64,000 bases of DNA from Candidatus Kaiserbacteria bacterium RIFCSPHIGHO2_01_FULL_58_22 (GTDB taxonomy: Bacteria > Patescibacteriota > Minisyncoccia > Phycocordibacterales > UBA2100): NCBI GenBank assembly GCA_001781445.1, contig MFLB01000034.1, forward strand, positions 17,793 through 81,792, read 5' to 3'. Of the stretch, positions 30,500 through 63,028 are shown piece after piece. Every line of letters begins with the position of its first letter. The stretch's first letter is position 1. The position numbers and the translations under genes are program-made. The notes below the pieces were generated by a model. That model had not been told where the DNA came from and ran no database searches. It saw only the letters and a program-made list of their open reading frames with translations.

Positions 30500-31789
30500 A
30501 TGCCGGAAGAAGATAAAGAAGGCCGCCCCGTCCATCCTCGCCCAACAGGGGCATTGCCGTTCAGGGATGAGTGGCGCATCCCGGCGCGCCTTGCGATCGC
30601 AGGGGGATGCATCGCGCTCGCCGTCGGTTTTGTTCTTGGAGTGGCGCTCGTTTCAGGCAAGGGAGCGGCGGCGCAACTTTCGGGCCCGCCCGAGGGCGTG
30701 GATTTCGATCCCGTGTGGAAGGCGTGGCGCATCATAGACGAGAAGTTCGTGCCGGCCGCTGTCGCGACCTCGACGCGGGTCGCTTCCTCGACCGAGGAGA
30801 GGAACGAAGCGCGCGTCTGGGGAATGATACAGGGGCTCGCGGAGTCGCTCGGCGACCCGTACACCTTCTTCCTTCCGCCCAAGGAGAACGAGATATTCGC
30901 GGAGGACATCAGCGGCGCCTTCGAGGGCGTCGGGATGGAAATCGCGGTGCGCGATCAGGTCCTCACCGTTGTTTCGCCGCTTAAGGGGACGCCCGCGGAG
31001 CGTGCGGGCATCAGGAGCGGCGATAGGATCCTCGAGATCGACGGCGTCGAGACGCGCGGCATGGACATCTCGACCGCGGTCTCGCGCATCCGCGGGCCGC
31101 GGGGGACGCAGGTCAGGCTTCTTGTCATGCGCGAAGGGTTCCCGGAGCCGCGCGAATTCGAAGTAACCCGCGAGGTCATCAACGTGCCTATCGTCGCGAC
31201 GGAAGCGCGTTCCGGCGTATTCGTCATAGAACTCCAGAGCTTCACGGCGAATTCGCCGGAGCTCTTCAGGCGCGCGCTCCGGGAGTTCGTCGAGTCGGGC
31301 AGTCGCAATCTCGTTCTCGACCTTCGCGGAAATCCGGGCGGCTATCTGGAGGCGGCGGTCGACATGGCGAGCTGGTTCCTGCCCTCGGGTAGGGTCGTCG
31401 TCACAGAGGATTACGCCGGGAACGCCGAAAGCGTCGTGCATCGCTCGCGCGGTTACGATGTGTTCAACGAGAACCTGCGCATGGTCATTCTCGTCGACCG
31501 CGGCAGCGCCTCGGCTTCCGAGATTCTTGCCGGCGCGCTTCAGCACTACGGTATCGCTACAATGGTGGGGGACAGGACCTTCGGGAAGGGCTCGGTGCAG
31601 GAACTTGTGGAGATAACCGACGATACGTCGCTCAAGCTCACCGTCGCGCGCTGGGTGGGGCCGGGAGGCGAGCCGATACCGCTGGAAGGACTCGTCCCGG
31701 ATGTGCAGGTGAACATGACCGAAGAGGACCGGGAGGCGGGGAGAGACCCGCAGATGGAAAAAGCCGTTGAGGTAGTCAGTAGTCAGTAG
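30500..31789 (+). CDS. ctpA: carboxyl-terminal processing protease (S41 family, PDZ domain)
   Basis: LDLRGNPGGYLEAAVDMASWF and the S41 catalytic region. 429 aa. Confidence 0.85.
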   Translation: MPEEDKEGRPVHPRPTGALPFRDEWRIPARLAIAGGCIALAVGFVLGVALVSGKGAAAQLSGPPEGVDFDPVWKAWRIIDEKFVPAAVATSTRVASSTEERNEARVWGMIQGLAESLGDPYTFFLPPKENEIFAEDISGAFEGVGMEIAVRDQVLTVVSPLKGTPAERAGIRSGDRILEIDGVETRGMDISTAVSRIRGPRGTQVRLLVMREGFPEPREFEVTREVINVPIVATEARSGVFVIELQSFTANSPELFRRALREFVESGSRNLVLDLRGNPGGYLEAAVDMASWFLPSGRVVVTEDYAGNAESVVHRSRGYDVFNENLRMVILVDRGSASASEILAGALQHYGIATMVGDRTFGKGSVQELVEITDDTSLKLTVARWVGPGGEPIPLEGLVPDVQVNMTEEDREAGRDPQMEKAVEVVSSQ

Positions 31790-31803
31790 TCTGTAGTTAG
31801 TAG
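31772..31803 (+). repeat. heptamer tandem repeat (GTAGTCA x3, GTAGTCT, GTAGTTA...) overlapping ctpA stop; inverted counterpart CTAACGA/CTAACTA... at 31838-31869 running into rplI start
   Basis: 7-bp periodicity read directly from the sequence. The 14-mer TCTGTAGTTAGTAG recurs at 32595-32608. Confidence 0.7.
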
Positions 31804-31872
31804 AAAATAGTGACGAGAAAAAGAATTCAGGACCACTAACGACTAACTACTTTCTACCAACTATCTACTGTT

Positions 31873-32316
31873 ATGAAAGTGATTTTCTTGAAAGATGTGG
31901 GTGGGGTCGGCAGGGCGGGGGAGGTGAAGGATATCGCCGACGGGTACGCGCTTAATTTTTTGATACCGCGGGGGCTTGCAAAACAGGCGACCACGGAGGC
32001 GCTTGCCGAGCATGCAAAGGTCCAGGCGGCGTTGGCGGCAGAAAAAGAAAGGCGCGAAGCAGATCTCAAGGAGGCGATCCAACGGCTCCGCGGCGCGCGG
32101 ATCGAGCTCAAAGTCAGGGCGACTGAAAAAGGAGGATTATTCAAAGCGATCGGCCCGAAGGAAATAGCGGATGCGCTTCATCAGCAAAAGAGCGTTTCCA
32201 TCCCGGAGGAGGGGATCGCGCCGCTGGAGCCCGTCAAAACGACGGGCGATCACATAATAAAAATTTCCGCCTTGGGAGCGGAAACGGAGATACTGCTGAA
32301 GATCGTCGCTGTTTAG
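31873..32316 (+). CDS. rplI: 50S ribosomal protein L9
   Basis: [36 protein letters not shown] is the L9 N-domain. Confidence 0.85.
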
Positions 32317-32585
32317 AGGACGTCGACGATGGGGCGGCGGGCGGAGCGGCCGTCGAAGTCGGTCTTTCTTTTGTTGCGGAAGCGCACCGTGCCCGCAACG
32401 CGCGCGAAGAGCGTGTAGTCGCTTCCGACGCCGATGTTCCGGCCCGGCAATATCTTCGTGCCGCGCTGGCGCACGACTATCTCGCCAATGGCCACTTTTT
32501 GCCCGTCGGCGCGCTTGACCCCCAAATACTTGGGATTCGAATCGCGGAGATTTTTCGCTGTTCCGCCCGCTTTGGTCGTTGCCAT
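32313..32585 (-). CDS. rpmA: 50S ribosomal protein L27
   Basis: [24 protein letters not shown]...[14 protein letters not shown]. 90 aa. Confidence 0.9.
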
Positions 32586-32597
32586 AGAAAATAGTCT

Positions 32598-32625
32598 GTA
32601 GTTAGTAGCACGTAGTTAGTAGTTG
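32598..32625 (+). repeat. heptamer tandem repeat (GTAGTTA GTAGCAC GTAGTTA GTAGTTG)
   Basis: Four 7-bp units in the divergent rpmA / 32657 intergenic region. Confidence 0.7.
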
Positions 32626-32656
32626 AAAACAATACCAAGCCCCGTATCATGGAGCG

Positions 32657-33040
32657 GTGGTAAAGATACAGGAAAGTTGGCAGAAAATCAAGAATGCCTT
32701 GGAGGACGGGGTCGGGGAGTGGGGGGTTATCGCCATCGTGGTTTTGGTCGGATTTTCCTCGTTCGGTCTCGGGCGCCTTTCCGCGCTCGAGGGCGCAAAA
32801 CCGGCTGTTTCGATACGGGAAGCGCAGACGGGAGCCGCCGCGCGCGCGCTTCCTCTCGGCGGCCTTGTCGTCGCTTCTCGGAAGGGGAGCGCGTACCACT
32901 ATCCGTGGTGCTCGGGCGCTGAAAGTATCGCCGAGCAGAACAAGATCTGGTTCAAAAGCGAAGAAGCGGCTCGCAAAGCGGGATACACACCTGCCAAGAA
33001 TTGTAAAGGACTCGGACAGCCGGCAGCTAGTAGCCAGTAG
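32657..33040 (+). CDS. membrane-anchored hypothetical protein with C-terminal Cys-containing domain (YHYPWCSG...NCKG)
   Basis: 127-aa ORF with one TM helix. Family uncertain. Confidence 0.5.
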   Translation: MVKIQESWQKIKNALEDGVGEWGVIAIVVLVGFSSFGLGRLSALEGAKPAVSIREAQTGAAARALPLGGLVVASRKGSAYHYPWCSGAESIAEQNKIWFKSEEAARKAGYTPAKNCKGLGQPAASSQ

Positions 33041-33076
33041 CCTGCGGCCATGAGAAAATGCGCGCTATGCATCCGT

Positions 33077-33110
33077 GCTACAGGCTACCAGCTATAAGCT
33101 ACAGGCTATG
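33077..33110 (+). repeat. heptamer tandem repeat (GCTACAG GCTACCA GCTATAA GCTACAG GCTATG) ending in the ATG of the exonuclease gene
   Basis: 7-bp periodicity. A related GCTAGTA GCCAGTA GCCTGCG run at 33026-33046 overlaps the stop of the upstream gene. Confidence 0.6.
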
Positions 33111-33713
33111 CTAATCGTTGACGTTGAAGCCTCCGGAGTGGAGTATCGCACGCACTCCATCGTTTCGGTGGGAGCGCTCGATTTTGCCAACCCGCGGAAC
33201 CGTTTTTACGAAGAGTGCCGCGTGTGGGACGGAGCGCACGTCATGGACGAAGCGCTCGCGGTCAACGGCTTCACGAAAGAGCAGGTGATAGATCCGAAGA
33301 AGCAGAGCGAGGCCGATCTCATCCACGCGTTCCTAGACTGGAGCGACGGGGTCGCGGAGCGGACGCTCGCCGCGCAGAACGTTTCCTTCGACCGGGACTT
33401 TCTCAAGGCCGCGGCGGAGAGGGCGGGACACACGGAGTGGCCGTTCTCGTACCGCACCATAGACACGCACACGCTCGCCTACATGCACATGGTAACGAGG
33501 GGGCTTCAGCCGCCAGTGGACTCCGTCAAAAAACATTCCGCGCTCGATCTCGACGCGACGCTCGAATACTGCGGAATCCCGAGCGAGCCGGCGCCGCACA
33601 ACGCGCTCACGGGCGCGCTTTCGCACGCCGAGGTGATATCGCGTCTTCTGTACGGAAGAAAGCTCCTGCCGGAGTTCGACGAGTTTGAAATACCCTGGCG
33701 AAATGTTTTTTGA
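33108..33713 (+). CDS. DEDD-family 3'-5' exonuclease (DnaQ-like)
   Basis: MLIVDVEASGVEY (Exo I), HNALTGALSHAEV (Exo III-like). 201 aa. Confidence 0.7.
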   Translation: MLIVDVEASGVEYRTHSIVSVGALDFANPRNRFYEECRVWDGAHVMDEALAVNGFTKEQVIDPKKQSEADLIHAFLDWSDGVAERTLAAQNVSFDRDFLKAAAERAGHTEWPFSYRTIDTHTLAYMHMVTRGLQPPVDSVKKHSALDLDATLEYCGIPSEPAPHNALTGALSHAEVISRLLYGRKLLPEFDEFEIPWRNVF

Positions 33714-33729
33714 AGGTCGTTGGAACGAT

Positions 33730-34230
33730 ATGCGATACATTCGACGCCTTCTTACGTGGCTCTCGCTTTCTCTTATCGGGGTCGTGCATGTAATTCGGTA
33801 TTGGCTCTCACGCTTTGCGGGAGCAGGGGAAGTGCAGGGAGTACGCATTATCCTCGTTCAGGAGCGCAGAGTGGTCCTAGTATCACACTGGTACGCGCCA
33901 TGGGCGTGGACATTGCCGGGCGGCGGCGTCGAGCGCGGAGAAACACCGGAGCAAGCGGCGATACGCGAGGCACGCGAAGAAACCGGATTTGAGGTAAAGA
34001 CTATTGCCGGCGAGATTGGCACCTACACCGGCTCGATGGGGAAGAGAGACAAGATAACGGTCTTCTACACGGGAGACTTCGAAGGCTCTCTCGCCCTCCG
34101 TCCTACCATCGAGATAATGGCGCGGAGCTGGTTCGACATAGACGCTCTTCCTGCCGAAGTGTCGCCCGCGAACCGCCGGCGCATCGAAGCCTACCGGGCG
34201 GGCGGGCGGGGAGAGCAGGGGCGGTGGTAG
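33730..34230 (+). CDS. NUDIX hydrolase
   Basis: Nudix box GGGVERGETPEQAAIREAREETG. Start chosen at 33730 to avoid overlap. Confidence 0.75.
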   Translation: MRYIRRLLTWLSLSLIGVVHVIRYWLSRFAGAGEVQGVRIILVQERRVVLVSHWYAPWAWTLPGGGVERGETPEQAAIREAREETGFEVKTIAGEIGTYTGSMGKRDKITVFYTGDFEGSLALRPTIEIMARSWFDIDALPAEVSPANRRRIEAYRAGGRGEQGRW

Positions 34231-34239
34231 TTGCGGTAG

Positions 34240-35259
34240 TTATCGGTCGTCCATCTCTTTTCCGCCGTGGAACTTTTCATGTATGTCGCGCAGGCGTTTA
34301 TTGGTGACATGCGTATAGATTTGCGTGGTCGCGACGTTCTTGTGGCCGAGAAGCTCCTGCACGCTCCGCAGGTCCGCTCCGTGAGAGAGAAGATCCGTCG
34401 CGTAGGTATGCCGGAGCGTGTGGGGCGTTACCTTTTTCGCGAGGCCGGCGAGAACCGCGCATTTCGAGATCATCATTTGTATGTAGCGGGGCGAGAGGCG
34501 CCTGTTTTCGGTTTTTTTCGACCGGTGGTTGATGAAGAGCGGATCGTGGACGTCGCGGCGGGTCGCGAGGTATGCACGCAGCCACTTGGCCGCGCGGGGG
34601 GAGATGAACACCGTTCTGACATATTTTCCTTTGCCCACGATGGAAAGCTCGAACGTCCGCGCGCCGTCCTCCTGCTTGAGGAAAGAGACGCGATCGGCGT
34701 CGAGCGCGGTGAGTTCCGAAATGCGCATTCCCGAAGAGAAAAAAAGTTCCATGATCGCGCGGTCGCGCAATCCGTTCTGCGTCGAGACGTCCGGTATCTT
34801 CAGCATGCGCTCCATATCCCGCGTGTCCAAGAAGGAGATTGTCTCGTCGGACTTCTGTTTGGCAAGCTTGATCTTCGACGAAGGAAGAGACTCGATGTCG
34901 CGGTCGGCGAAATAAGCAAGAAGGGCCCGCAGGGCGATGAGGTAGTAGTTCTGGGACTTTTTGCTCAAGGAGGCGCCCACGGGCGTTTTGTGCCCGCGGG
35001 CGAGGTAGAGGCGGTAGTCCCAAATATGCCGGGCGGTAAGCTCGCGGGGAAGCAGAGACTCTTGTCCGGTTTTGCGGAGCCACGTCGTGAACAGCTTCAG
35101 ATACTGTCCGTAATTTTTCTGTGTATTGTTCGAAAGCCCTTTCTCGATCTCGCAGTAATCAAGGAACGGCGTTACGTACGATGAGATTTTCTTTTGCGTC
35201 GCGGGGGAGGTGGGGGACATGAGGTATGACTGTGACGTTACTATTATTTTATACGGCAA
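34240..35259 (-). CDS. tyrosine site-specific recombinase (XerC/XerD-like)
   Basis: C-terminal HTLRHTYATDLLSHGADLRSVQELLGHKNVATTQIYTHV (R-H-R-Y catalytic region) and an N-terminal SAM-like domain. 339 aa. Confidence 0.85.
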   Translation of the reverse strand: MPYKIIVTSQSYLMSPTSPATQKKISSYVTPFLDYCEIEKGLSNNTQKNYGQYLKLFTTWLRKTGQESLLPRELTARHIWDYRLYLARGHKTPVGASLSKKSQNYYLIALRALLAYFADRDIESLPSSKIKLAKQKSDETISFLDTRDMERMLKIPDVSTQNGLRDRAIMELFFSSGMRISELTALDADRVSFLKQEDGARTFELSIVGKGKYVRTVFISPRAAKWLRAYLATRRDVHDPLFINHRSKKTENRRLSPRYIQMMISKCAVLAGLAKKVTPHTLRHTYATDLLSHGADLRSVQELLGHKNVATTQIYTHVTNKRLRDIHEKFHGGKEMDDR

Positions 35260-35261
35260 GT

Positions 35262-36053
35262 ATGGCAGATACCATTATTCGCACAATATATGTAAAGCGA
35301 AATACGGGGATAAAGCCGCGCTCCAACTATTCTGACGCCTCTGACACCCAAACACTCTCCGCGTTGTTCAGGTACACTGCAGAGATGTCAACGTCATATC
35401 GCGATCGAATAAAACGGCTTTTGACTCCCCCCGAGCGCCGCATGTTCCAAACTCTCGCGACGCCGCAGAAGGTCCAAGACTATCTGGATACCCTTCCCAT
35501 CAATTTCGAGGCTTCGGGGGAGACCTACATGGCTCCGAGACGCGTTTTGCGGGCCAAAACGGCCCATTGCTTCGAAGGGGCGCTTTTGGCCGCCGCCGCG
35601 CTCGCGTACCACGGGCAAAAGCCCCTATTGCTCGATTTCAGGACGATTCCCGACGATGAAGACCATGTGGTGGCGCTTTTCCGGCAAAACGGCTACTGGG
35701 GCGCGATAAGCAAGACCAATCACGCCATCCTGCGCTATCGCGAACCGGCATACCGAAGCCCGCGCGAGCTCGCCATATCATTCTTCCACGAGTACCTGAT
35801 GTGGGATGGCCGTAAATCACTGCGGGCGTATTCAAGGCCGTTTGACCTCTCGAAATTCGCGCCAGAGCGGTGGGTCACGGCCGATAAGGAGTTGTTCTGG
35901 CTTGTAGAAGCGCTTGATAAGACCCGCCACTTCCCTACCGTTCCGAAAAAAAATCTCCGCACGCTCCGCAAGGCATACAAAATCGAATTGCGCGCGATGA
36001 AGCTCGTCGAATGGAAGCGCAAAAAACGCCTACCCCGCAGTCGTCAGAGATAG
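35262..36053 (+). CDS. hypothetical protein with transglutaminase-like Cys-His-Asp motif (tentative)
   Basis: KTAHCFEGALLAAAALAYHG...DEDHVVALF resembles the transglutaminase-like cysteine peptidase core. Weak assignment. Confidence 0.45.
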   Translation: MADTIIRTIYVKRNTGIKPRSNYSDASDTQTLSALFRYTAEMSTSYRDRIKRLLTPPERRMFQTLATPQKVQDYLDTLPINFEASGETYMAPRRVLRAKTAHCFEGALLAAAALAYHGQKPLLLDFRTIPDDEDHVVALFRQNGYWGAISKTNHAILRYREPAYRSPRELAISFFHEYLMWDGRKSLRAYSRPFDLSKFAPERWVTADKELFWLVEALDKTRHFPTVPKKNLRTLRKAYKIELRAMKLVEWKRKKRLPRSRQR

Positions 36054-38634: not shown

Positions 38635-38669
38635 AGTTTGCAGTTTACAGATGACAGTTGACGGTTAAA
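38635..38669 (+). repeat. heptamer tandem repeat (AGTTTGC AGTTTAC AGATGAC AGTTGAC GGTTAAA) abutting the gltX start codon
   Basis: 7-bp periodicity. About 21/24 identical to the repeat at 55993-56020. Confidence 0.6.
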
Positions 38670-38703
38670 AGAAAGGATTCAGTTGACTGTACACTTTTTA
38701 CTG

Positions 38704-39846
38704 TCAACTACTTGCATGCTCGAGCGCTGTTTCCACGATGATACTTGCTATCTTTTGCGCCGCTTGCGGGCGGGCGAAGGCCTTCGCCGCCGCGGCCATC
38801 GAGGCGCGCAGGCTCTCGTCGCCCATGATGCGGTCTATCTCGGCGGCGAGCAGGTGCGGCGTGAGGTTTTTTTGCTCGAGGACCGCGGCGGCGCCCGCGC
38901 GCGCGTAGGAGAAGGCGTTCTCCGTCTGGTCGTGCGATATCTCGGTGGGTATCGGAATGAGTATGGACGGTATTCCCCACGAGGCGATCTCGAAAATGGT
39001 GCCGCTCCCAGCGCGGGAGACGACGAGCGAGGAGATGCCCGCCGTCATGCGGAGCGCGAGCGTGTTCAGGAGCCCGAAGCTCCGATAGCGGTCGCCGAAC
39101 CGGGAATTTTTGAGAATGACGCCCGAGATGCCGCTCACTTCCTCGAGGTTCGCGCTTCCGGTCTGATGCACGACGTTGTAGCGCTCGACGAGCGCCGGGA
39201 GCGCGTCGAGGACGACCTCGTTCATCGCGGATGCTCCCGACGAGCCTCCCATGACGAAGACGGTCGGCACGGCCGCATCGAGCGTGAGGAATTCATGCCC
39301 GCCCTCTTTCGCGGGAGCCTCTATTTCCTTGCGGATCGGGTGTCCCGTGCGCGCTATCTTTTCCAGGTACGCTTCTGGGAACTGCGTGGCGGCGTCGGGG
39401 TGCGCGAGGGCGATCCAGCGCGCGAAGCGCGCCGACCACAGCGACACGCGGCCGGGTTTCGCGTCGGCGTCGTAGATGACGACGGGAAGAGCGAGGAGGC
39501 GCGCGGCGTAAAGCGTGGGGAACGCGGCGTAGCCGCCCGTTGAGAATATGACGTCGGGATAGAGGCTGAAGAGCTGGAATATCGAACGCGCGACGCCGAG
39601 CGCGGTCTTGAAGAGGTCGAACACGTTCAGCAGGCTCGGGTATCGCCGCAGTTTTCCGGCCGGGCTCGGCCGGTATTCTATCTCGTGCTCGAGGAGCGCC
39701 GCGGGGTCGAACGGCTCGGGGCCGATGTAAAAGAGTTCCGGCTCGATCAGTTTTTTTTCTTTGGAGATATCTTCGAGCGCCTCTGCAACGGCAATGAGGG
39801 GATAAAAGTGTCCCCCGCTCCCCCCGCCTGCCAGCACGATCTTCAT
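38704..39846 (-). CDS. murG: UDP-N-acetylglucosamine--N-acetylmuramyl-(pentapeptide) pyrophosphoryl-undecaprenol N-acetylglucosamine transferase
   Basis: MKIVLAGGGSGGHFYPLIAVAEAL and the GT28 C-terminal domain. Confidence 0.9.
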   Translation of the reverse strand: MKIVLAGGGSGGHFYPLIAVAEALEDISKEKKLIEPELFYIGPEPFDPAALLEHEIEYRPSPAGKLRRYPSLLNVFDLFKTALGVARSIFQLFSLYPDVIFSTGGYAAFPTLYAARLLALPVVIYDADAKPGRVSLWSARFARWIALAHPDAATQFPEAYLEKIARTGHPIRKEIEAPAKEGGHEFLTLDAAVPTVFVMGGSSGASAMNEVVLDALPALVERYNVVHQTGSANLEEVSGISGVILKNSRFGDRYRSFGLLNTLALRMTAGISSLVVSRAGSGTIFEIASWGIPSILIPIPTEISHDQTENAFSYARAGAAAVLEQKNLTPHLLAAEIDRIMGDESLRASMAAAAKAFARPQAAQKIASIIVETALEHASS

Positions 39847-40979: not shown

Positions 40980-40983
40980 GCGT

Positions 40984-44446: not shown

Positions 44447-45240
44447 AATTAGTTAATGGGGATACGTTAATGGGGTTAATGGGGATACGTCCGTTATTTT
44501 GCACAACTTTGTTGCATAATATCATTGCTGTTTCGGTCTTCCGGGCCCTCTCATGGTACCTTCCATATCATACTCCTCAATCATCCATGTGGTCCATGCG
44601 GTCGACCCATACGGCGCTCCTTTTTTAACGGAGGTGCGAATAGATTCCAGCGCTTCCTTGTTGACGGTGTTCACCAGCGAGAGGTAATCGCGGGGTAACG
44701 CAATGGGAAGCGGCGCGAGCAGTTTCTTGTCCTCGTTGTTCCCTCTCCTGCGTCGATACAGACTCGAGTAAGGCCAACGCTCCGCGCGAGTGACGAGGCG
44801 CGCGCGGAGAGGATTCTGCTCCACGTAGTGTATCACGGTGACGAGATGCTGATCTTCTTGTATCGGAAAAGACTTGTACGACCCCTGGTAGAGGTGGCCG
44901 CCGCCGACGGTTTTGGTGCGCACGCGGCGCTGTCGCACGTGCGTCGTCGTGACCCAGCGCATGAATTCGCTCATGTCTCGGTCGCGCTTTGGATGCAGAA
45001 CGAGGTGCCAATGGTTAGGCATGATGCAGTACGCAAGGATGCGCATGTCGATCAGTTCGACACCTTCTTTGAGTAGCGCCTCGAAGTGCCGATAGTCTTT
45101 TTCATCGTGGAAAATCCTTGCGCGCCCGTTCGCGCGGTTGAGCACATGATACGGCATGTTACCGACGGCAACGCGCGCTAGTCGCGGCATGAACAATACT
45201 ATGCCATGAAAAGAGGCGATATATCGGACTTATCCCCATT
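44447..45240 (-). mobile_element. IS200-like element (Y1/HUH transposase) with terminal inverted AATGGGGATA(c/a)GT motifs; left end carries three tandem TTAATGGGG(ATACG) units
   Basis: Left end 44453-44492 (ttaatggggatacg ttaatgggg ttaatggggatacgtcc). Right end ACTTATCCCCATT at 45228-45240. A second, internally deleted copy with the same ends is at 47896-48335. Confidence 0.7.
44522..45190 (-). CDS. Y1 (HUH) transposase, IS200/RAYT-like long form
   Basis: [15 protein letters not shown]...[17 protein letters not shown] (HuH) and a C-terminal WPYSSLY motif. ATG at 45190 (the track uses a TTG two codons upstream). Confidence 0.8.
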
Positions 45241-55481: not shown

Positions 55482-55496
55482 TGCCGCTACGTGTCA

Positions 55497-55991
55497 TCAT
55501 CCGTTGCGTACGAACGCCAAAACCGCGTAGGAGCCGAGGAGCCACCAGAAGCGGTAGGCTTCTCCGAAGACCGCTTGCGCGTCGGGGCCGAAGCGCCAGA
55601 GCGCGTCGAGGGCGGGCGTCGCGAGCCAGAAGGTCGTGAGGATGGCCGTGAGCGCGACGCCGCCGAGCGCCGCCTGTATCGTCTGCCCCGACTCCCCGCC
55701 CCACGAAAGCCCGATGCGCCCTATGAGAACGTACGAGACTACGACGAGAATGCCGAGAAGGACGGCTTCCAGGATGGGCGTCGAGAACTGCTCGGTGATG
55801 CCGCCGAGGAACGCCGCTTTTTTCGACGCGGAGAAGAGCAGGAGCGCGATGGGTAGCGCGAGCGCGAGCGTGCACGCGCGGCGCGCGCCGGAGCGCAGGC
55901 AGTCGAATGCCGCGAATATCGCGAAAGCCCCCAAGATCATCCAGTCGGTCGGAACCGCGTTATAGAGAGAAGCCACCGGGTCAAAATTCAT
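55497..55991 (-). CDS. CvpA-like small membrane protein (tentative)
   Basis: 164 aa with four TM helices. Architecture is similar to CvpA. Confidence 0.4.
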   Translation of the reverse strand: MNFDPVASLYNAVPTDWMILGAFAIFAAFDCLRSGARRACTLALALPIALLLFSASKKAAFLGGITEQFSTPILEAVLLGILVVVSYVLIGRIGLSWGGESGQTIQAALGGVALTAILTTFWLATPALDALWRFGPDAQAVFGEAYRFWWLLGSYAVLAFVRNG

Positions 55992-55992
55992 A

Positions 55993-56070
55993 GCTGACAG
56001 TTTACAGATTACAGTTTACGGCAAAATACGGCGATATTGACTGTTCACTGTTAACTGTTCACTGTTAACT
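55993..56070 (+). repeat. two heptamer tandem-repeat runs (AGCTGAC AGTTTAC AGATTAC AGTTTAC ...; TGACTGT TCACTGT TAACTGT TCACTGT TAACT)
   Basis: 7-bp periodicity in the dnaJ-cvpA spacer, immediately upstream of the CvpA-like start codon (minus strand). Confidence 0.6.
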
Positions 56071-56074
56071 TTCT

Positions 56075-57178
56075 CTACAGCCCTTCTTCGCTCCGGAGCT
56101 TTTCGACGAGATCGCGGGCGCCTTTTGAAAGTTTCTTCGGGAATTCTATCTCGATCCGCACGAGAAAGTCTCCCCGCGCTCCCCTGCCGTAGGGCACGCC
56201 CTTGCTCCGGATGCGCAGGGTCTCTCCGTGCGAGACGCCCGCCGGCACCTTCAGCATCTCTTCGCCGTCGAGCGTGTGGAGGCGGTATTCGCCGCCGAGG
56301 AGCGCGTCGGTGAGCTTAATGGGAAGAATGGTCAGGATATTATTTCCCTCGCGCGAAAAATTCACGTCGGGCTTCACGTGGAGCTTCACGTACAGATCGC
56401 CCGGATTGCCGCCGGGCGCCGCTTCGCCACGTCCGGGCATGCGGATCATTTCTCCGTCGGAGACGCCCGCCGGTATGGAAATGCGTATCTCTTCTTCGCG
56501 CTTCGCGACGCCTTCGCCGCGGCATGCTTCGCACGGCGTTTCCGGCGTCTCGCCCTTGCCGCGGCAGTGCGGGCAGACGCGTGTCGAAGTGAAGGTGCCG
56601 AAGAAGGAATTGCGCGTCTCGCGGATGTCACCCTTGCCGTTGCAGGCCATGCAGGCAACGATCTTCGAGCCTTTCTGCGCGCCCGTGCCGCCACAGACCG
56701 TACATGCGGCAACCTTCGCGATGAGAACGCGGCGTTCGGAACCGAAAATAGCCTCGCGGAACGGCAATTCGATGTCTATCGAAATGTCGCGCCCTCTCGC
56801 GCGGCCCCGTGGCGAGCCGCCGAAAAACTCGCCGAACACGTCTCCGAGATCGAACTCGAACGCCTGTCCGCCGCCGAAGCCGAAACCTTGCCCTCCGAAG
56901 GAGGGTCCGCCTCCGGCGGAGAAATTGGAAAAGTCGAAACCGCCGAAGCCGGGGCCCTGCGCCCCGCCGCCCGCGAAGGTGCGGCCGTAGGTGTCGTATT
57001 CGGCGCGTCGCTTCTTGTCGGAGAGCACGGCGTACGCCTCGCTCACCTCCTTGAACTTCTTCTCGTCGCCTCCCTTCTTGTCGGGATGGTACTTGTGCGC
57101 GAGCTTCCTGAACGCGCTCTTGATGTCTTCCTCGCTTGCTCCTTTCTGAACGCCGAGGACCTGGTAGTAGTCTTTCAT
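56075..57178 (-). CDS. dnaJ: molecular chaperone DnaJ
   Basis: J-domain (HPD), G/F-rich region and four CxxCxGxG repeats. Confidence 0.9.
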
Positions 57179-57267
57179 ACGCTACATTATATGGGTACTG
57201 CATGATTACGCAAATCATTCTTTCTCGCGCTGTATGAAGATGTGCACAGCTGAACAAATATTCATAC

Positions 57268-57294
57268 AGGCAAAATGCCTGCCTTATATGGCAG
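57268..57294 (-). terminator. overlapping alternative hairpins CAGGCAaaaTGCCTG / CCTGCCttatatGGCAGG plus direct repeat AGGTTAAACCTACT x2 (57293-57325) in the dnaK-dnaJ spacer
   Basis: Read from the sequence. The function (attenuator, processing site or partial terminator) is not determinable here. Confidence 0.35.
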
Positions 57295-57320
57295 GTTAAA
57301 CCTACTAGGAGAGGTTAAAC

Positions 57321-59198
57321 CTACTGGGATTTAGGCGGTTCCTCGGGAGGTGTTTGCTTGTTTCCCGGTTGGTCGCTGGGAGGCGGAGTCTGTTGCTGGT
57401 TTTGTGACATCGCCTGCCCTATCGCGCTCATCGCGGTTGAAAGCGCTTCGGAAGCGGATTTAATCGCGGCGGCGTCCGTGCCGTTTCTTGAAGATTTGAG
57501 AGCGTCTATTTTTTCCTGCACGTTCTTCTTTATGTCCTCGCTCACTTTGTCGCCATGTTCTTTGAGCGCCTTTTCTGCGGCATAGGCAAGCTGGTCGGCG
57601 GCGTTCTGCGCTTCCACGAGCTCTTTCTTCCGCTTGTCGGATTCCGCGTTCGCCTCCGCGTCCTTTTTCATCTTCTCCACTTCCGCCTCCGAAAGGCCGG
57701 AGCGCGCCTCGATGCGGATGGATTGCTCCTTGCCGCTCGTTTTGTCTTTGGCTTTCACGCTCAAAATGCCGTTGGCATCGATGTCGAAGGAGACCTCGAC
57801 TTGCGGCACGCCGCGCGGCGCGGGCGGGATGCCGTCGAGGTTGAAGCGGCCGAGCGATTTGTTGTCGGATGCCATGGGCCGCTCGCCCTGCACGACGTGT
57901 ATCTCGACGGACGGCTGGTTGTCGGAGGCTGTCGAGAAGAGCTGGGAGCGGGAGGTCGGTATCGTCGTGTTGCGCTCGATGAGATGCGTCGCGACGCCGC
58001 CGAGGGTCTCGATGCCCAAGCTCAACGGGATGACATCGAGAAGAAGTACGTCCTTCACGTCGCCACGCAGGATGCCGCCCTGTATCGCCGCGCCGATCGC
58101 TACGACCTCGTCGGGGTTCACGCCCATGTGCGGCTTCTTGCCGAAGAGTTTTTCGACCGCCTGCTGGATGGCTGGCATGCGGGTCTGGCCGCCGACGAGC
58201 ACGACCTCGTTGATGTCGCCCGTCTTGAAGGGAGAGGCTTCCATCGCGCGCTTCGCGATCGCCATCGCGCGCTCGATGAACTCGGAAGAGAGCTCCTCGA
58301 GCTTCGCGCGGCTCATCTTGAGGAGCAGGTGGCGCGGGCCAGAAGAGTCGGAAGTGATGAACGGGACGTTTATCTCGGTGTCGACGGCCGTCGAGAGCTC
58401 TATCTTCGCTTTTTCGGCCGCTTCGTCGAGGCGCTGGCGCGCGAGAGGGTCGTTGAGGACGTCGATGCCGGATTCTTTTTTGAACTCTCCGGCTATCCAC
58501 GCCATGATCTTCTGATCGAGATCCTTGCCGCCGAGGTGCGCGTCGCCGTCGGTCGAGCGGACCTCAATGACGTCGTCGCCGACCTCCAATACCGATATGT
58601 CGAACGTGCCGCCGCCGAAGTCGAAAACGGCTATCTTTTCGTTCTTCTTTTTGTTGAACCCGTACGCGAGCGCCGCCGCCGTCGGCTCGTTGATGATGCG
58701 CTTCACGTCGAGGCCCGCGATCTTTCCCGCGTCTTTCGTTGCCTGCCGCTGGGAGTCGTTGAAGTAGGCCGGGACGGTGATGACCGCCTCCGTGATAGTC
58801 TCGCCGAGGCGCGCTTCCGCGTCGGCTTTTAATTTCTGCAGTATCATCGCGGAGATCTCCTCCGGGCGGTGCCATGTTTCGCCCATCTTCACCTCGATGC
58901 CGCCGTTCGCGCTTTTTTGCGTTTCGAAAGGCACCGCCGCGCGGTCTTTCGCGACGGCGGGTTCGTCGAAGGTATGGCCGATGAACCGCTTTATCTGGTA
59001 GACCGTGTTCTTCGGGTTCGTGACGGCCTGCCGCTTCGCGAGGAGTCCCACAAGGCGCTCCCCCGTTTTCGAGACGGCGACGACGGAAGGCGTCGTACGC
59101 GCGCCTTCGGCGTTCTCTATGATCTCCGGCTCTCCGGCCATAACGGCCGCCATCGCGGAGTTGGTCGTTCCGAGGTCTATTCCGAGGATTTTTGACAT
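57321..59198 (-). CDS. dnaK: molecular chaperone DnaK (Hsp70)
   Basis: [25 protein letters not shown] and other Hsp70 signatures. 625 aa. Confidence 0.95.
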
Positions 59199-59220
59199 AC
59201 CATTTAGAGAAAATTAGCGG

Positions 59221-59769
59221 TTAATGCGGGGAAGATTTTAATACAACCTGCGCGGGACGCAAGACCCGCGCCTTTGTGCGGTATCCGTAGCGCAATATAC
59301 GCACGACGGAGTTCGGCTCTCCTGGAACGTCATCGACGCCTTGAACCGCCTCGTGAATTTTGGCGTCGAACATCTCTCCTACCTTTCCGTAGCGTTCTAT
59401 CCCGTGCTGGCGGAGAGCCTCGATGAGCTGGTCGCGCACATGCTCCATGCCGCTCTTCCAGCCGTCGGAGACCTCCGCCCACACCTCGCTTCCAGCCGCC
59501 ATGTCGAAGCCATCGAGCGCGGGGATGATGTCGTGCACCAGCGCCTCGCGTAAAAGTTCCGCGCTCCGCGCTGCCCGCGTTTCCGCATCCTTCTTCGCGT
59601 TTATCGCGTCGGCCTTGCACCTCTGCCAGCCGTCGAGGTATTCCTGCCGTTCTTTCTTCACTTTCTCAAGCTCGTCGCGAAGTTTCTTTAGCTTCGCCTG
59701 CGCGGCGCCGAGGTCGCCAAGCTCCTCCTCGGGCTCAAACTGCACGTCGTCTTCTTGAGCATCGTTCAT
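59221..59769 (-). CDS. grpE: nucleotide exchange factor GrpE
   Basis: Coiled-coil N-terminus and GrpE C-domain. 182 aa. Confidence 0.85.
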   Translation of the reverse strand: MNDAQEDDVQFEPEEELGDLGAAQAKLKKLRDELEKVKKERQEYLDGWQRCKADAINAKKDAETRAARSAELLREALVHDIIPALDGFDMAAGSEVWAEVSDGWKSGMEHVRDQLIEALRQHGIERYGKVGEMFDAKIHEAVQGVDDVPGEPNSVVRILRYGYRTKARVLRPAQVVLKSSPH

Positions 59770-59833
59770 GACGAGAGCGAGTGTATCACACTCGCGACAT
59801 CAAAAAAAGAATCGGAAATCAGAATCGGAAATC

Positions 59834-60154
59834 CTATTTCGCGTCCGTGTCGGGAACCAGAGTATCGAGTAATTTCAGATCTTCGTCAGTAAGATATTCT
59901 CCAGTCACGTATTTATTGAGCAGATCGAGTTCTTCGATAGTTAACATCCTTCCTTTCGGGTCGCCGATATTGTAGAGCGCACGCGTCACGTAGAGGTGTC
60001 GAATCCTCGGATTCTCGATCTTCAGCGACTCTTCTCGTATGAGAGCGTAAGGATTTTCAACTTCTTTATCCAAAAAATTGTATTCAAGCCTGTCTGCGCT
60101 GACTGACAATCCTTTCTGGGATCGTACTGGTCCTTCGTTGGGCTTTTCTTTCAT
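59834..60154 (-). CDS. hypothetical protein (lower GC)
   Basis: 106-aa ORF upstream of grpE. No family recognised. Confidence 0.4.
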   Translation of the reverse strand: MKEKPNEGPVRSQKGLSVSADRLEYNFLDKEVENPYALIREESLKIENPRIRHLYVTRALYNIGDPKGRMLTIEELDLLNKYVTGEYLTDEDLKLLDTLVPDTDAK

Positions 60155-60190
60155 ATGCGGATATCGGGACGCATTATTTTTAACGGAGGG

Positions 60191-60589
60191 CTAGCGTTTG
60201 CTCCACTGCGGAGCGCGACGCGCCGCTTTGAGGCCGAACTTCTTGCGCTCTTTCCCGCGCGGGTCGCGCTTGAGGAAACCGCGCACTTTGAGGTCTTTTC
60301 GCTGTTCGGGAACGACTTCCGCCATCGCGCGGGAAAGCCCCATGCGTATCGCCTCGGCCTGTGCCTTGAGGCCGCCGCCGCGGACTTTCGCCGAAACGGC
60401 GTAGTGTGCGCCTAGCGCCGAGAGAGGCGCGTAGGCGGTCTGTACCATATCCTGAAGCGGAAAATACGCGTCGGCGGACTTGCCGTTGACTATCATGGAC
60501 GCGCTTTTGGCCGCCTCGATGCGCACGCGCGCGGTCGCGGTTTTCCTCCGTCCAATTGCTTCCGTATATCGCTCTGGTTTTGTTACCAT
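60191..60589 (-). CDS. rpsI: 30S ribosomal protein S9
   Basis: GRRKTATARV...GGGLKAQAEAIRMGLSRAM...FLKRDPRGKERKK. Confidence 0.9.
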   Translation of the reverse strand: MVTKPERYTEAIGRRKTATARVRIEAAKSASMIVNGKSADAYFPLQDMVQTAYAPLSALGAHYAVSAKVRGGGLKAQAEAIRMGLSRAMAEVVPEQRKDLKVRGFLKRDPRGKERKKFGLKAARRAPQWSKR

Positions 60590-60612
60590 GATTCTTTTTT
60601 AGAAGCCGGCGG

Positions 60613-60960
60613 TCAGTCGCTGATTATAAGATTTTTCATACGAGAAGTACGGAATGTATTGCGAGGAAGCATACGTTCTACCGCTCGGCGAAGCGGCATT
60701 CCAGGCCCCCGGCGCTTCGAGAGCATCGTGAAGCTCTCTTTGCGCTGGCCGCTCGGGTAGCCCGAGTATGTCTTATATATTTTTTGCGTACGCTTTTTTT
60801 CAGGCATGGAGAGCTTGGCGGCGTTGGTTATTCTCACCTGCACGTCTGAGCGTATGTGCGGCGTGTAGTCGGGAGAAGTCTTGCCCATGAGCGCTTTGGC
60901 CGCTTCCGAGGCGACTCTGCCGAGGCTTTTCCCCGATGCGTCAATGGTGTATTCAGACAT
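60613..60960 (-). CDS. rplM: 50S ribosomal protein L13 (short)
   Basis: IDASGKSLGRVASEAAKALMGK...YTPH...YSGYPSG. Confidence 0.85.
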   Translation of the reverse strand: MSEYTIDASGKSLGRVASEAAKALMGKTSPDYTPHIRSDVQVRITNAAKLSMPEKKRTQKIYKTYSGYPSGQRKESFTMLSKRRGPGMPLRRAVERMLPRNTFRTSRMKNLIISD

Positions 60961-60978
60961 AAAACTATTGACCGTAGG

Positions 60979-61332
60979 CTATTTGATGAATTCGATTCGA
61001 GCCATTTCCCCCACGCGCTTCCCTACTCGGCCTAGTCGGACGATGCGCGTATACCCTCCCGCGCGTTTGGTGTAGCGGGTCGCGAGCTCTCGTAGCTTTC
61101 GCTCTGTGTCCAGGGCTCCACCGAGCCGCTCGACTACAATGTGACTTGCGGCGAGGGTTCCCTTTTTGCTTGTCGTAATCAGGCGCTCCACATACGGACG
61201 AAGCGCTTTCGCCTTGGCGGTCGTCGTCGTGATGCCTTCGGAGAGAACGAGCGAGCGGGCGAGAGAGCGCAAGAGCGCGGTCCGTTGGCCCTTTTCGCGT
61301 CCGAGTTTTCTGTTGCGATCGTGATGCCGCAT
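60979..61332 (-). CDS. rplQ: 50S ribosomal protein L17
   Basis: MRHHDRNRKLGREKGQRTALLRSLARSL...TTTAKAKALRPYVERLIT. Confidence 0.9.
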   Translation of the reverse strand: MRHHDRNRKLGREKGQRTALLRSLARSLVLSEGITTTTAKAKALRPYVERLITTSKKGTLAASHIVVERLGGALDTERKLRELATRYTKRAGGYTRIVRLGRVGKRVGEMARIEFIK

Positions 61333-61333
61333 G

Positions 61334-62305
61334 TTATTGCCTGAGCGTCAGTCCGAGATTCGAGAGCGCGCGCTTGATGTCCTGCAGGCCCTTCTGGCCG
61401 AGGCCTTCGATGGAGAGAAGATCATCCTCGCGTTTGCGAACGAGGCCGCCGACGGTGCGGATGGACGCGTTGTCGAGCGCGGCTTCGACGCGCTGGGGAA
61501 GCGCGAGTTCCGTGATGCGCGTCTTCAGCATCTCGGCGTCGACGGCGGCTCCCTTCTCGTGGCGGGCGCTCGCGAGCGAGGGCTCCGTGGCGTCTCCCGC
61601 CTCGGCGCTCTCTTCTTCCTTGAAGCCGACGATCGCCTTGAGCTGGTGGATCATCGTTTCTATCGCCCGTTCGAGCGCTTCGCGGGGCTCCATGGTGCCG
61701 TCGGTCTCGATGAGGATGCGGAGGCGGTTGAAATCGGTCCGGTCGCCGACGCGCATGTTCTCCACTTCGTAGTTGACGCGGCGTATCGGACTGAATATCG
61801 CGTCGAGCGCGATGGTGCCGACCTCGACGCGGTCTTTCTGGTGCGATTCCTTCGGGATGTAGCCGAGGCCCTTCTCGGCCCGCATCTCAAGTTCGAGCGA
61901 CGCTTTTCCTGTCATCTCCGCGATGTGGCTCTCCGGATTCAGTATCTCCACTTGCCCCGGCGCCTTGAGATCGGCGGCGGTAACGGCGCGCGGGCCTTTC
62001 GCGGAGAGAGTGATGGTCTGGGCCTCGTCGGTCGCGATCTTGAGTCGGATCTTGCGGATGTTCAGCAAAATGGTCACGACGTCTTCCTTCACGCCCTCGA
62101 TGGTCGAGAATTCGTGCGAAACGCCGGGGATCTTCACGTGCGTTATCGCGGCGCCGGGAAGCGAGGAGAGGATAATGCGCCGCAGGGAGTTGCCCAGCGT
62201 GTAGCCGTAGCCGGGATAGAGGCCGTCTATCTCGTACGTGCCGCTGTGTCCCGACTCCGAGACGACGCGCGGCTTGGAGGGAAGGGCTATGTGATAATCG
62301 GACAT
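61334..62305 (-). CDS. rpoA: DNA-directed RNA polymerase subunit alpha
   Basis: GYGYTLGNSLRRIILSSLPG N-terminal domain and alpha-CTD. Start at the internal Met (62305). Confidence 0.9.
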   Translation of the reverse strand: MSDYHIALPSKPRVVSESGHSGTYEIDGLYPGYGYTLGNSLRRIILSSLPGAAITHVKIPGVSHEFSTIEGVKEDVVTILLNIRKIRLKIATDEAQTITLSAKGPRAVTAADLKAPGQVEILNPESHIAEMTGKASLELEMRAEKGLGYIPKESHQKDRVEVGTIALDAIFSPIRRVNYEVENMRVGDRTDFNRLRILIETDGTMEPREALERAIETMIHQLKAIVGFKEEESAEAGDATEPSLASARHEKGAAVDAEMLKTRITELALPQRVEAALDNASIRTVGGLVRKREDDLLSIEGLGQKGLQDIKRALSNLGLTLRQ

Positions 62306-62378
62306 ATGTTCATGTGCGGACCTATTGGTAATTGAACACAAAAAACGCGTAAAAACGCTCGCGAGTATACACCAGATC

Positions 62379-62990
62379 TTATCTGCTGTAAAACTCGAAC
62401 AGCGTCGGGTAATCCAGCGCGGTCTCGGCCGGAACGTACGACGGCTCTCCTCCGACTTCGATCGTCAGGGCTCCGGGGTCGTACGAAAGCCACTGCGGCG
62501 CGGCGCGCGAAGCCTCCTGCCCTTCCTCCGTGAGCCGCGCGAAGAGCGGGCTCCGCTTGCTTCCCTCGCGGATAGAGATCGTGTCGCCTTTCTTCGCTCG
62601 GTGCGAGGGCGTCGTTGTGCGCTTTCCGTTGATGAGCACGTGGCCGTGGGAGACGAGCTGGCGCGCCGCCCGCCGCGTGGGTGCGATGCCGGCGCGGTAT
62701 ATCACGCTGTCGAGGCGCATTTCGAGCATCCGATGGAGGCTCCCGGAAGGGTCCGCCGCCCGGTACGCCTCCTTGGCGTAGTTTCCGAGCTGGCGCTCGG
62801 AGATGCCGTACGTGTAGCGCACGCGCTGTTTTTCGAGAAGCTGGCGGCCGTAGTCGCCCCCGCCGCGTCCGCCGCGCCTGACCTTCTTGACGCGCGCTTC
62901 CGAAAGCGCGAACTTTTGGGTCTGCGTCTGCTCGAAGATGCCGGCGCCGAGGCGCTTCGCTATTTTGTATTTGGATTTTACGGGCAACAT
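62379..62990 (-). CDS. rpsD: 30S ribosomal protein S4
   Basis: KRLGAGIFEQ..., the S4 domain LEMRLDSVIYRAGIAPTRRAARQLVSHGHVLINGKR. Confidence 0.9.
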   Translation of the reverse strand: MLPVKSKYKIAKRLGAGIFEQTQTQKFALSEARVKKVRRGGRGGGDYGRQLLEKQRVRYTYGISERQLGNYAKEAYRAADPSGSLHRMLEMRLDSVIYRAGIAPTRRAARQLVSHGHVLINGKRTTTPSHRAKKGDTISIREGSKRSPLFARLTEEGQEASRAAPQWLSYDPGALTIEVGGEPSYVPAETALDYPTLFEFYSR

Positions 62991-62999
62991 ATCAGACAG

Positions 63000-63028
63000 G
63001 CGAATAGCGAACAGCGAATAGCGAATAG
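63000..63028 (+). repeat. heptamer tandem repeat (GCGAATA GCGAACA GCGAATA GCGAATA), ending 9 nt upstream of the rpsD start codon
   Basis: 7-bp periodicity read from the sequence. Confidence 0.6.

Follow-up and report, generated by a model that had tools for sequence, protein, structure and literature searches.

The stretch of DNA analysed here, a 64-kb window on a contig of Candidatus Kaiserbacteria bacterium RIFCSPHIGHO2_01_FULL_58_22, an ultra-small groundwater organism, raises the question of why several of its gene spacers are made of tandem seven-nucleotide units, most loci having a unit of their own, that run right up to a start codon. A preliminary description of this DNA had reported such heptamer arrays, locus-specific, rich in TAG and TAA and abutting start codons, and our analysis bears that description out. 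We show that the arrays are far more frequent than chance allows, in the window and in related genomes, and that at junctions between genes of the same strand they are as a rule paired with a complementary array, so that a predicted hairpin spans the junction from stop codon to start codon. With some hesitation, we favor the reading that arrays born by slippage are kept as leaders free of start codons, and that the paired ones may be stop-to-start clamps that couple the translation of neighboring genes.

Period-7 arrays in the window and in related genomes

All the arrays listed previously are present, as judged by inspection of the sequence and, for six of them, by Tandem Repeats Finder, which placed period-7 arrays at 31772-31803, 32598-32624, 33077-33108, 55997-56019, 56040-56070 and 63000-63028 and found another at 13995-14024, beyond the range that had been described; copy numbers were 3.3-4.6. 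The units differ by locus (GTAGTCA, GCTACAG, ACAGTTT and GCGAATA). A self-match scan, in which at least 16 matches in 21 nt defined a segment, returned 7 segments of period 7 in the window and 0-1 for periods 5, 8, 10, 11 and 13. Within the spacers, taken from a self-trained gene map of the window, there were 5 period-7 segments against 0.01 expected from dinucleotide-preserving shuffles of the spacers (shuffle maximum 1). Spacers of at least 35 nt fell into two classes, five with a lag-7 identity of 0.46-0.56 and all others at 0.17-0.33; one spacer, called C below, fell under the 35-nt cut-off of this comparison because the gene caller chose GTG 33075 as the start of the following exonuclease gene.

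Related loci were collected with the S41 peptidase encoded at 30500-31789 (here called ctpA) as query. One genome per species yielded 55 loci, with a best match of 79% protein identity, and a metagenome scan with the same protein added 80 more, the best at 82%; neither collection contained the genome of the window itself or a strain variant of it. Many apparent duplicates were one assembly present in two collections, and their removal left 95 loci which, with the window, total 1.29 Mb (loci are labelled L005, L012 and so on). The closest relatives with informative names are mostly Candidatus Kaiserbacteria, a group of the Parcubacteria in the candidate phyla radiation (CPR), and many other loci carry generic or evidently wrong labels of metagenome-assembled genomes (MAGs).

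In 859 kb of this DNA there were 60 period-7 segments against 0-3 for periods 4, 5, 8, 10, 11 and 13, and an independent 377 kb gave 28 against 0-1 for other periods; over the whole 1.29 Mb, no other period was enriched apart from multiples of 3. The relatives' spacers held 62 period-7 segments against 0.3 in shuffles, and among 383 spacers of 40-300 nt a lag-7 identity of at least 0.45 was reached by 39, compared with 1-5 at the other lags from 4 to 12. Of 95 arrays, 71 have most of their length outside called genes, in DNA of which 89% is coding. In the window organism and its relatives heptamers make up roughly every eighth gene spacer, and array density differs mildly among genomes. The period-7 excess over composition is confirmed as real and far above chance, and the arrays have the properties of the prokaryotic heptanucleotide simple-sequence class, namely head-to-tail 7-nt units beyond what composition explains and a preference for non-coding DNA. 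The earlier claim of a genome-wide signature stands to the extent that the relatives carry the same pattern, a single 64-kb window being unable to show a whole genome.

Paired arrays between stop and start codons

The preliminary description had noted an inverted partner at one locus, A. Partners turned out to be the rule. Spacers A, C, E and F each have a 5' array whose inverted counterpart follows on the 3' side, and the two are predicted to fold into an imperfect hairpin of 60-100 nt that extends from the upstream stop to the downstream start; D does so more weakly. The flanking genes were named by Pfam, with which 20 window proteins were scanned, and the members in the window are as follows.

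31772-31803, plus strand: 5' arm of hairpin A, GTAGTCA GTAGTCA GTAGTCT GTAGTTA GTAG, covering the last codons of the S41 peptidase gene (..VVSSQ) and its TAG stop at 31787-31789
31834-31872, plus strand: 3' arm of hairpin A and leader of rplI, CACTAAC GACTAAC TACTTTC TACCAAC TATCTAC TGTT, with the rplI ATG at 31873 and the loop at 31804-31833
32592-32625, minus strand: array B, single-armed leader of rpmA (L27), CAACTA CTAACTA CGTGCTA CTAACTA CAGACTA, adjoining the start codon at 32583-32585
33026-33044, plus strand: 5' arm of hairpin C, GCTAGTA GCCAGTA GCCTG, nearly all of it in the last codons (..ASSQ) and TAG stop (33038-33040) of the hypothetical gene 32657-33040
33077-33110, plus strand: 3' arm of hairpin C, GCTACAG GCTACCA GCTATAA GCTACAG GCT-ATG, in phase into the ATG (33108-33110) of an RNase T-like exonuclease gene
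38635-38712, minus strand: module D, between murG (stop 38704-38706) and gltX (start codon 38632-38634)
38635-38668, minus strand: leader array of module D, CAACTGT CATCTGT AAACTGC AAACT-ATG
55992-56074, minus strand: hairpin E, between dnaJ (56075-57178) and the hypothetical gene 55497-55991
about 56037-56067, minus strand: 5' arm of hairpin E, GTTAACA GTGAACA GTTAACA GTGAACA GTC
55992-56022, minus strand: leader in hairpin E, GTAAACT GTAATCT GTAAACT GTCAGCT-ATG
62991-63092, minus strand: hairpin F, between rpsK (S11, 63093-63527) and rpsD (S4, 62379-62990)
63063-63090, minus strand: 5' arm of hairpin F, AATAGAG AAAAGCG AAAAGTG AATAG
63000-63028, minus strand: leader in hairpin F, CTATTCG CTATTCG CTGTTCG CTATTCG
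13993-14050, plus strand: possible further member between the thrA stop and asd, NNNCGAA four times (13995-14026) after the stop, then a short complementary arm and a T run

Two extents given previously are refined by this list: the array at 32598-32625 covers 32592-32625 and abuts the rpmA start on the minus strand, and the run at 33026-33110 does end in the exonuclease ATG, which lies at 33108-33110. Scored against dinucleotide shuffles, the hairpins have z-scores of -2.4 for A (minimum free energy, MFE, -29.8 kcal/mol), -1.9 for C (MFE -41.7 kcal/mol), -2.3 for E and -3.9 for F (MFE -30.1 kcal/mol). Module D, the upstream partner of which overlaps the end of murG (..AGT AGT TGA), is the weakest hairpin of the window at -1.7. 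Array B stands in a divergent spacer, has no partner arm and is predicted to be unstructured (z -0.4); read on the plus strand, it runs up to the -35 hexamer TTGAAA that belongs to the divergent gene 32657-33040. The possible member upstream of asd has a z-score of -1.4 and a -10-like TAAGAT box 6 nt before the asd ATG, and its hairpin looks terminator-like.

The leaders of rplI and rpmA (31834-31872 and 32592-32625), which are convergent ribosomal-protein genes, have the same unit family and therefore frame the 750-bp gene pair as a large inverted repeat, an arrangement that recurs in L029. A search of the whole 64 kb with Rfam gave no match at gathering score, and no tRNA genes were found in the window. 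Over hairpin C (33012-33113) there were sub-threshold matches to models of the animal microRNA precursors mir-2114 and mir-879, at about 32 bits against gathering scores of 90-94, which only reflect the long imperfect stem.

The internal order of these stems is best seen in four orthologous ctpA-rplI spacers (L029, L068, L085 and L101), the consensus of which has five 5-bp helices separated by 2x2 internal loops, with (C/U)GUAG paired with CUAC(G); in the fold of L085 even the AUG is base-paired, its partner being a CGU codon of the upstream gene. The loop positions of this family are the variable positions of the unit, and in 29 of 46 arrays the two positions that vary most within a unit lie side by side (p = 4e-5). 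The concentration of mismatches by unit phase was within the multinomial null (z -0.5), and the loop motif AATTCAGGA, common to A and F, was not enriched across 41 hairpins.

A conserved core of 3-5 nt followed by about two adjacent variable positions is in favor of an oligomeric RNA- or DNA-binding protein that would read one core per 7-nt step and control initiation or hairpin formation, with a HutP- or TRAP-like ring, S1 or a cold-shock protein (Csp) as candidates. HutP of B. subtilis recognizes the pattern (UAG N4)n, and (TAG N4)n is common in the 5' arms, the start-proximal arm having the complement CTA, while about half of the arrays lack a TAG/CTA core. Units are also more often common to junctions within a genome than between genomes (12.7% against 3%), and S1, Csp and CsrA have likewise been proposed for the TAACTGA repeats discussed below. 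However, the cores differ by locus even within the window (GTAGT, GCTAC, ACAGT, GCGAA), so that one sequence-specific protein cannot read them all. In addition, no loop motif is conserved, and the 20 window proteins scanned with Pfam include no candidate, HutP and TRAP among them. We regard such a protein as improbable.

Registration of the arrays with gene starts

The start-proximal array consists of 3-5 units, is poor in G, is most often of the form CTANNNN and stands directly before the start codon, whereas the complementary array of same-strand junctions, most often of the form NNNNTAG, begins in the last codons of the upstream gene, in register with its stop; divergent spacers have the start-proximal array alone. 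Of the 72 heptamer spacers, 42 lie between same-strand genes, 26 are divergent and 4 are convergent, compared with 300, 139 and 90 among all spacers. Convergent spacers are depleted of arrays (4/72 heptamer spacers against 86/457 others, p = 0.004), which shows that arrays go with gene starts and not with gene ends.

The region from -35 to -1 is strongly 7-periodic at 57 of 1203 gene starts, compared with 0-4 for other lags. In these leaders C peaks at -2, -9, -16, -23 and -30 (about 0.5) and T at -1, -8, -15, -22 and -29 (about 0.57); the A of the ATG therefore completes a CTA unit. Phase 0 accounts for 75 of the 131 CT dinucleotides at same-strand junctions, and the registration to the ATG has a p of 4e-41; in divergent spacers the phase lock is weak (29/106). 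Periodic leaders contain 11.5% G against 21% in other leaders, and leaders with the G-poor strand towards the gene (C>G) outnumber the opposite orientation by 43 to 12 (p = 3e-5). Moreover, no ATG, GTG or TTG occurs within 35 nt in 39 of 57 heptamer leaders, a condition found in 28% of all genes.

Junctions were also folded in silico together with 30 nt of the upstream gene. The AUG-proximal region (-12 to +3) pairs with the upstream gene end at 23 of 41 heptamer junctions and at 53 of 213 others (p = 1e-4), and a stop codon whose pairing partner lies no more than 25 nt from the AUG is found at 23 of 41 against 31 of 213 (p = 6e-8). Among the four functions offered by the preliminary description, which were a translation-initiation element, a promoter UP-like element, a protein-binding array and a slippage-prone spacer, the first appears to be the best fit, given the phase lock to the ATG, the G-poor sense strand, the leaders free of NTG codons and the depletion in convergent spacers.

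Translation and promoter context

The absence of Shine-Dalgarno (SD) motifs, stated previously for this organism, was corroborated. An SD-like 4-mer occurs at -18 to -4 of 3 of 70 window genes compared with 11 of 70 in a control window, and in all data there were 115 such 4-mers upstream of starts against 105 in the control window, which is no enrichment. In other genes of the window and relatives the preferred bases are T at -12 and -7 and A at -11, which amounts to a -10 box placed 6 nt ahead of the ATG, and position -1 strongly prefers T across the clade, with G nearly absent. A -10 box so placed would be the signature of leaderless mRNAs, apparently the predominant form for first cistrons in these Kaiserbacteria. 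The share of genes with the box is 35% among other spaced genes, 23% among those led by heptamers and 14% among tightly coupled ones, and with fewer -10 boxes the heptamer-led genes look like leadered or internal cistrons. The arrays may stand in for missing ribosome-binding sites.

The same figures tell against the promoter or UP-like element that had been suggested, which we reject, since heptamer leaders have fewer -10 boxes than other spaced genes and hairpin F lies inside the conserved alpha operon rpsK-rpsD-rpoA-rplQ, as identified by Pfam. The only promoter found by a consensus scan is TTGAAA-16-TATCAT-6-GTG at 32623-32659, beside array B, an instance of the leaderless arrangement just described.

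Long imperfect stems between cistrons could also be terminators, or processing sites of the RNase III type, one version of which cuts CU^AUG and leaves a leaderless 5'-AUG mRNA. Leaderless-type starts are common in the clade and the base of the stem is in exact register with the A of the AUG, as that version would have it. Nevertheless, the stems are not followed by a U tract, they are depleted at convergent gene ends, where terminators concentrate, hairpin F stands within an operon, and ordinary perfect GC-rich hairpins are present elsewhere in the window. We give very little credence to this explanation as a whole. Its terminator version was rejected, because the stems are AT-rich and interrupted, have no T run and show the convergent depletion (4/72 against 86/457). 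The perfect GC-rich terminator-like hairpins, of up to 21 bp, are at 10354-10399, 27131-27235, 26930-26990 and 63563-63620, one of them in a convergent spacer, and are structurally unlike the heptamer hairpins.

Two putative leaderless promoters of the window share an 18-bp palindrome, GATACCCCCT(A/G)GGGGTAT, at 947-964 and 8147-8164 (two copies against 0.03 expected). The first copy overlaps TACAAT, a -10-like box that ends 6 nt before the ATG of gene 976-1245. The second overlaps the -10-like TATCAT, which in turn overlaps ATG 8166, about 8 nt upstream of an open reading frame (ORF) start at 8174; the gene caller starts this ORF, which is heavy-metal-ATPase-like, at ATG 8282. The palindrome is probably a repressor operator.

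Local seeding and turnover of the units

At heptamer junctions the upstream stop is TAG in 22 of 41 cases compared with 71 of 227 others (p = 0.007), and 50 of 58 further TAGs are in phase with it. On the upstream side the period of 7 continues through the final 14 nt of the gene (0.40 against about 0.25), and the downstream gene is free of it. The S41 peptidase illustrates this well, since its C-terminus is of constant length in all relatives and yet its last codons carry the locus-specific unit. The gene ends in GAG GTA GTC AGT AGT CAG TAG in the window and in CTA GTA CGT AGT CTG TAG in L029; in L016 the end AGT ATG TAG is followed by GTATNTG units, and in L015 AAC AGT CTA CAG TGA is followed by ACAGTNN units. 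The units thus appear to be reiterations of a local heptamer that holds the stop codon, which would explain why each locus has its own unit and why units are rich in TAG.

Modules nevertheless turn over between genomes. At the ctpA-rplI junction most relatives have a spacer of 0-15 nt or an overlap, so the module is dispensable there. A heptamer spacer of 60-130 nt is found in the window and in L005, L012, L017, L023, L024, L026, L029 and L036; these represent at least six unit families, with complementary arms in most of them and one clear arm only in L017 and L036. By orthologue, arrays precede rpmA in 14-29 of 70 cases, the exonuclease gene in 11-17 of 55 and rplI in 8-9 of 81; none of the 78 S41 peptidase genes is so preceded, and five units are kept in the orthologous leaders of L005, L066 and L068. 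Eight arrays compared between strain pairs of 95-99.6% identity, a small sample, were the same in both strains; one indel was seen and was not 7 nt long, and changes of 7 nt in either direction were absent. The check for copy-number variation between strains thus came out negative, and the notion of slippage-prone spacers has support as an origin, in that units continue the local coding end and stop, and none as a description of present hypervariability.

In one pair with 95% nucleotide identity in the flanks, L071 and L076, the spacer of about 70 nt upstream of rpmA (5755-5824 in L076) is wholly different. One strain has a hairpin of GGTATNN/NNATACC and the other an array of the CTAGNNN type, which suggests that a cassette was exchanged and not that point mutations accumulated.

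Copying within a genome is seen as well. The preliminary description had reported two sequences common to pairs of loci. The 14-mer TCTGTAGTTAGTAG was recovered in A (31790) and B (32595), with 0 expected by chance. The second, in D (38640) and E (55997), is indeed common to both at a length of about 20 nt, again with 0 expected. D and E, which are 17 kb apart and separate unrelated gene pairs, align over their whole length of about 85 nt with 79% identity. Four unrelated unit families coexist in the 64-kb window beside the two related pairs, A/B and D/E. Unrelated junctions of one genome share units in 12.7% of comparisons against 3% between genomes, and this, with the D/E alignment, indicates that modules are sometimes copied.

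Such copies could be the mark of miniature mobile or recombining hairpins, similar to REP/REPIN elements or to miniature inverted-repeat transposable elements (MITEs), that insert at junctions and possibly stabilize the upstream mRNA. Besides the D/E alignment, the A/B 14-mer, the raised sharing of units within genomes and the wholesale replacement between 95%-identical strains, several units contain GTAG, and GTAG is the conserved 5' tetranucleotide of REP sequences. However, most loci have a unit of their own that continues the local coding end, the part of the genome available shows neither target-site duplications nor a homogeneous genome-wide family, no transposase or RAYT is among the 20 window proteins scanned with Pfam, and the internal 7-nt periodicity is foreign to REPINs and MITEs. 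Mobile elements of this kind therefore seem to us a poor explanation, and we would be surprised if they proved correct.

A possible role in coupling translation

The reading we tentatively lean towards can be set out in a few steps. Replication slippage of 7 nt would repeat a local heptamer that contains the stop codon, inverted copying would provide the second arm, and whole modules would at times be copied between spacers of one genome. The start-proximal array would then serve as an unstructured, stop-rich leader without start codons for an internal or leadered cistron the initiation of which is independent of SD motifs. The complementary arm would hold this leader paired until the ribosome that ends the upstream gene melts the stem and is released beside the freed AUG, giving translational coupling or re-initiation through melting of structure. 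Another form of this reading is a self-renewing intercistronic clamp in exact register (UAG with CUA|UG), in which the ribosome would be handed to the next start, or a nuclease cut would leave a leaderless 5'-AUG, while slippage and inverted copying renew the clamp with new units; we think this form unlikely.

Several results weigh against a clamp that acts in the RNA. Sense and antisense folds are equally stable (17 against 15 among 33 hairpins) and G-U pairs number 99 against 81, a symmetry that would let the complementarity be a pure product at the level of the DNA. Within the orthologous family of L029, L068, L085 and L101 there is no two-sided compensatory change, the helices being invariant, and co-variation is seen solely at the level of units, between families. 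Only about half of the arrays have the TAG/CTA core. The periodicity of stem interruptions is weak over all hairpins, with a mean z of 0.71 and z > 2 in 17% against 6% of controls. The divergent single-armed arrays are weakly phase-locked and coupling cannot account for them. To these must be added the dispensability of the ctpA-rplI module and the unlike rpmA spacers of L071 and L076.

A rival explanation is a functionless by-product of mutation, in which slippage and template-switch or quasipalindrome copying make the modules, the cell tolerates them and the biases in orientation, phase and location mark where such DNA is harmless, with immediate stops and without upstream start codons. Heptamers have been reported as the most abundant class of long simple-sequence repeats in prokaryotes, with slippage as the rationale, and here the units are seeded from local sequence, stability and G-U pairs lack sense/antisense asymmetry, most orthologous ctpA-rplI junctions are without the module, spacers turn over wholesale between close strains and array density varies mildly among genomes. 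Yet rpmA, the exonuclease gene and rplI bear arrays in many genomes while the units change, registration is strong both to the ATG and to the stop codon (50/58), and the depletion in convergent spacers is fourfold, even though neutral DNA would be equally tolerable there. The constant copy number in eight strain comparisons and the conserved unit number (5) in L005, L066 and L068 point the same way. Weighing both sides, we hold the by-product explanation to be the less likely one, though a serious competitor, and keep the coupling leader as our preferred, if tentative, reading.

Further repeats in the window

A 7/14-nt periodic repeat, AGCACGA AACCCGA AGCACGA GGCCCGA, lies at 8346-8385 in the N-terminal region of the heavy-metal-ATPase-like ORF and has GAAGCACGAAA in common with the intergenic array at 14000-14026. 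As a candidate array member the repeat at 8350-8380 was rejected, because it is within this ORF (MHPEVIREKPGMCPECGMALLP...). The motif GTATCCCCATTA occurs in three exact and several degenerate copies (8 against 1.75 expected), with sites at 44454-44488, 45230, 48222 and 48319. The copies flank a stretch of low GC content (about 0.51), segment 45978-48341, where gaps of 900 and 735 nt have no confident gene call; this stretch may be foreign or decayed DNA.

Significance

These junctions, with their recurrent and easily spotted module, offer a concrete candidate for SD-independent initiation or coupling at internal cistrons; start-codon selection without SD pairing is essentially unstudied in the ultra-small CPR bacteria. 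The long-unexplained heptamer repeats of Beggiatoaceae and cyanobacteria gain a link to a candidate mechanism. Even neutral arrays would preserve, in clean natural form, the traces of 7-nt slippage and of template switching that produces hairpins. The modules also suggest that streamlined genomes can build structured spacer DNA de novo from a local stop codon, with the structure kept while the sequence turns over. For annotation of CPR MAGs, arrays can help to mark true start codons, as in the case of the exonuclease gene, where they indicate ATG 33108 and not GTG 33075.

Comparison with known systems

In the literature searched we found no report on heptamer repeats or SD usage in CPR bacteria. 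The closest described case is that of the TAACTGA repeats of marine Beggiatoaceae, also present in some Cyanobacteria and Bacteroidetes, which are sets of 2-6 tandem heptamers, mostly intergenic (MacGregor 2015, PMC4679880). In their 'forward' orientation they most often end 1 nt before a start codon, rarely with a ribosome-binding site, and some overlap the end of the upstream ORF; they contain stops in all frames and precede ribosomal-protein genes including S4 (rpsD), also inside ribosomal-protein operons (PMC4679880). A translational role was proposed for them, untried in that work, with S1, Csp and CsrA named as candidates, and they consist of a single unit genome-wide, with one inverted repeat in 170 sets (PMC4679880). 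The Kaiserbacteria arrays agree in being oriented, in ending at start codons without a ribosome-binding site, in overlapping upstream ORFs and in preceding ribosomal-protein genes, S4 among them. They differ in that their units are specific to locus and genome and continue the local coding end, in that same-strand junctions have a complementary second array that makes a hairpin, and in the CPR lineage of the host; AACTGA-like units occur among the relatives only in L037, L088 and L103.

More generally, heptanucleotides are described as favored non-coding long simple-sequence repeats in prokaryotes, originating by polymerase slippage (Mrazek et al. 2007, as summarized in PMC4679880 and PMC4692102), and intergenic GGGAATC repeats of Xanthomonas lie between the same gene pairs in related genomes and vary in length and sequence. 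Our arrays share the period of 7, the intergenic location and slippage as the proposed origin with these repeats as described. Their paired inverted arrays, stop and start registration and G-poor orientation to the downstream gene are not described for that class, and length polymorphism was absent from the eight close-strain comparisons made here.

Cyanobacterial STRR heptanucleotides are known from Calothrix, Anabaena and Nostoc (Mazel et al. 1990, as cited in PMC4692102). Like them, the Kaiserbacteria arrays are tandem heptanucleotides in non-coding DNA at many loci. STRR sequences are tandem and dispersed over many non-coding loci, their role being unexplained, and belong to a few fixed unit families per genome (CCCCAGT and others) of about 100 copies. 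We know of no stop-to-start hairpin architecture in STRR sequences.

REP/BIME and REPIN elements resemble the heptamer hairpins in being imperfect palindromes or doublet hairpins in intercistronic spacers just past stop codons, with some copying within a genome, and differ in that REP families are homogeneous per genome, lack the 7-nt periodicity and depend on RAYT. Coupling through the melting of structure is known from the MS2 coat and replicase genes and from E. coli rpmI-rplT, where sequences are unique and initiation is SD-dependent. In our predicted folds, too, the downstream initiation region is paired with the end of the upstream cistron; unlike in those cases, the stems are made of tandem heptamers, recur at many junctions and do without SD motifs, and the mechanism is inferred only. 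Against this background, the novelty lies in the pairing of the arrays, in their registration with the stop codon as well as the start codon, in the local seeding from a stop codon and in the CPR and leaderless context.

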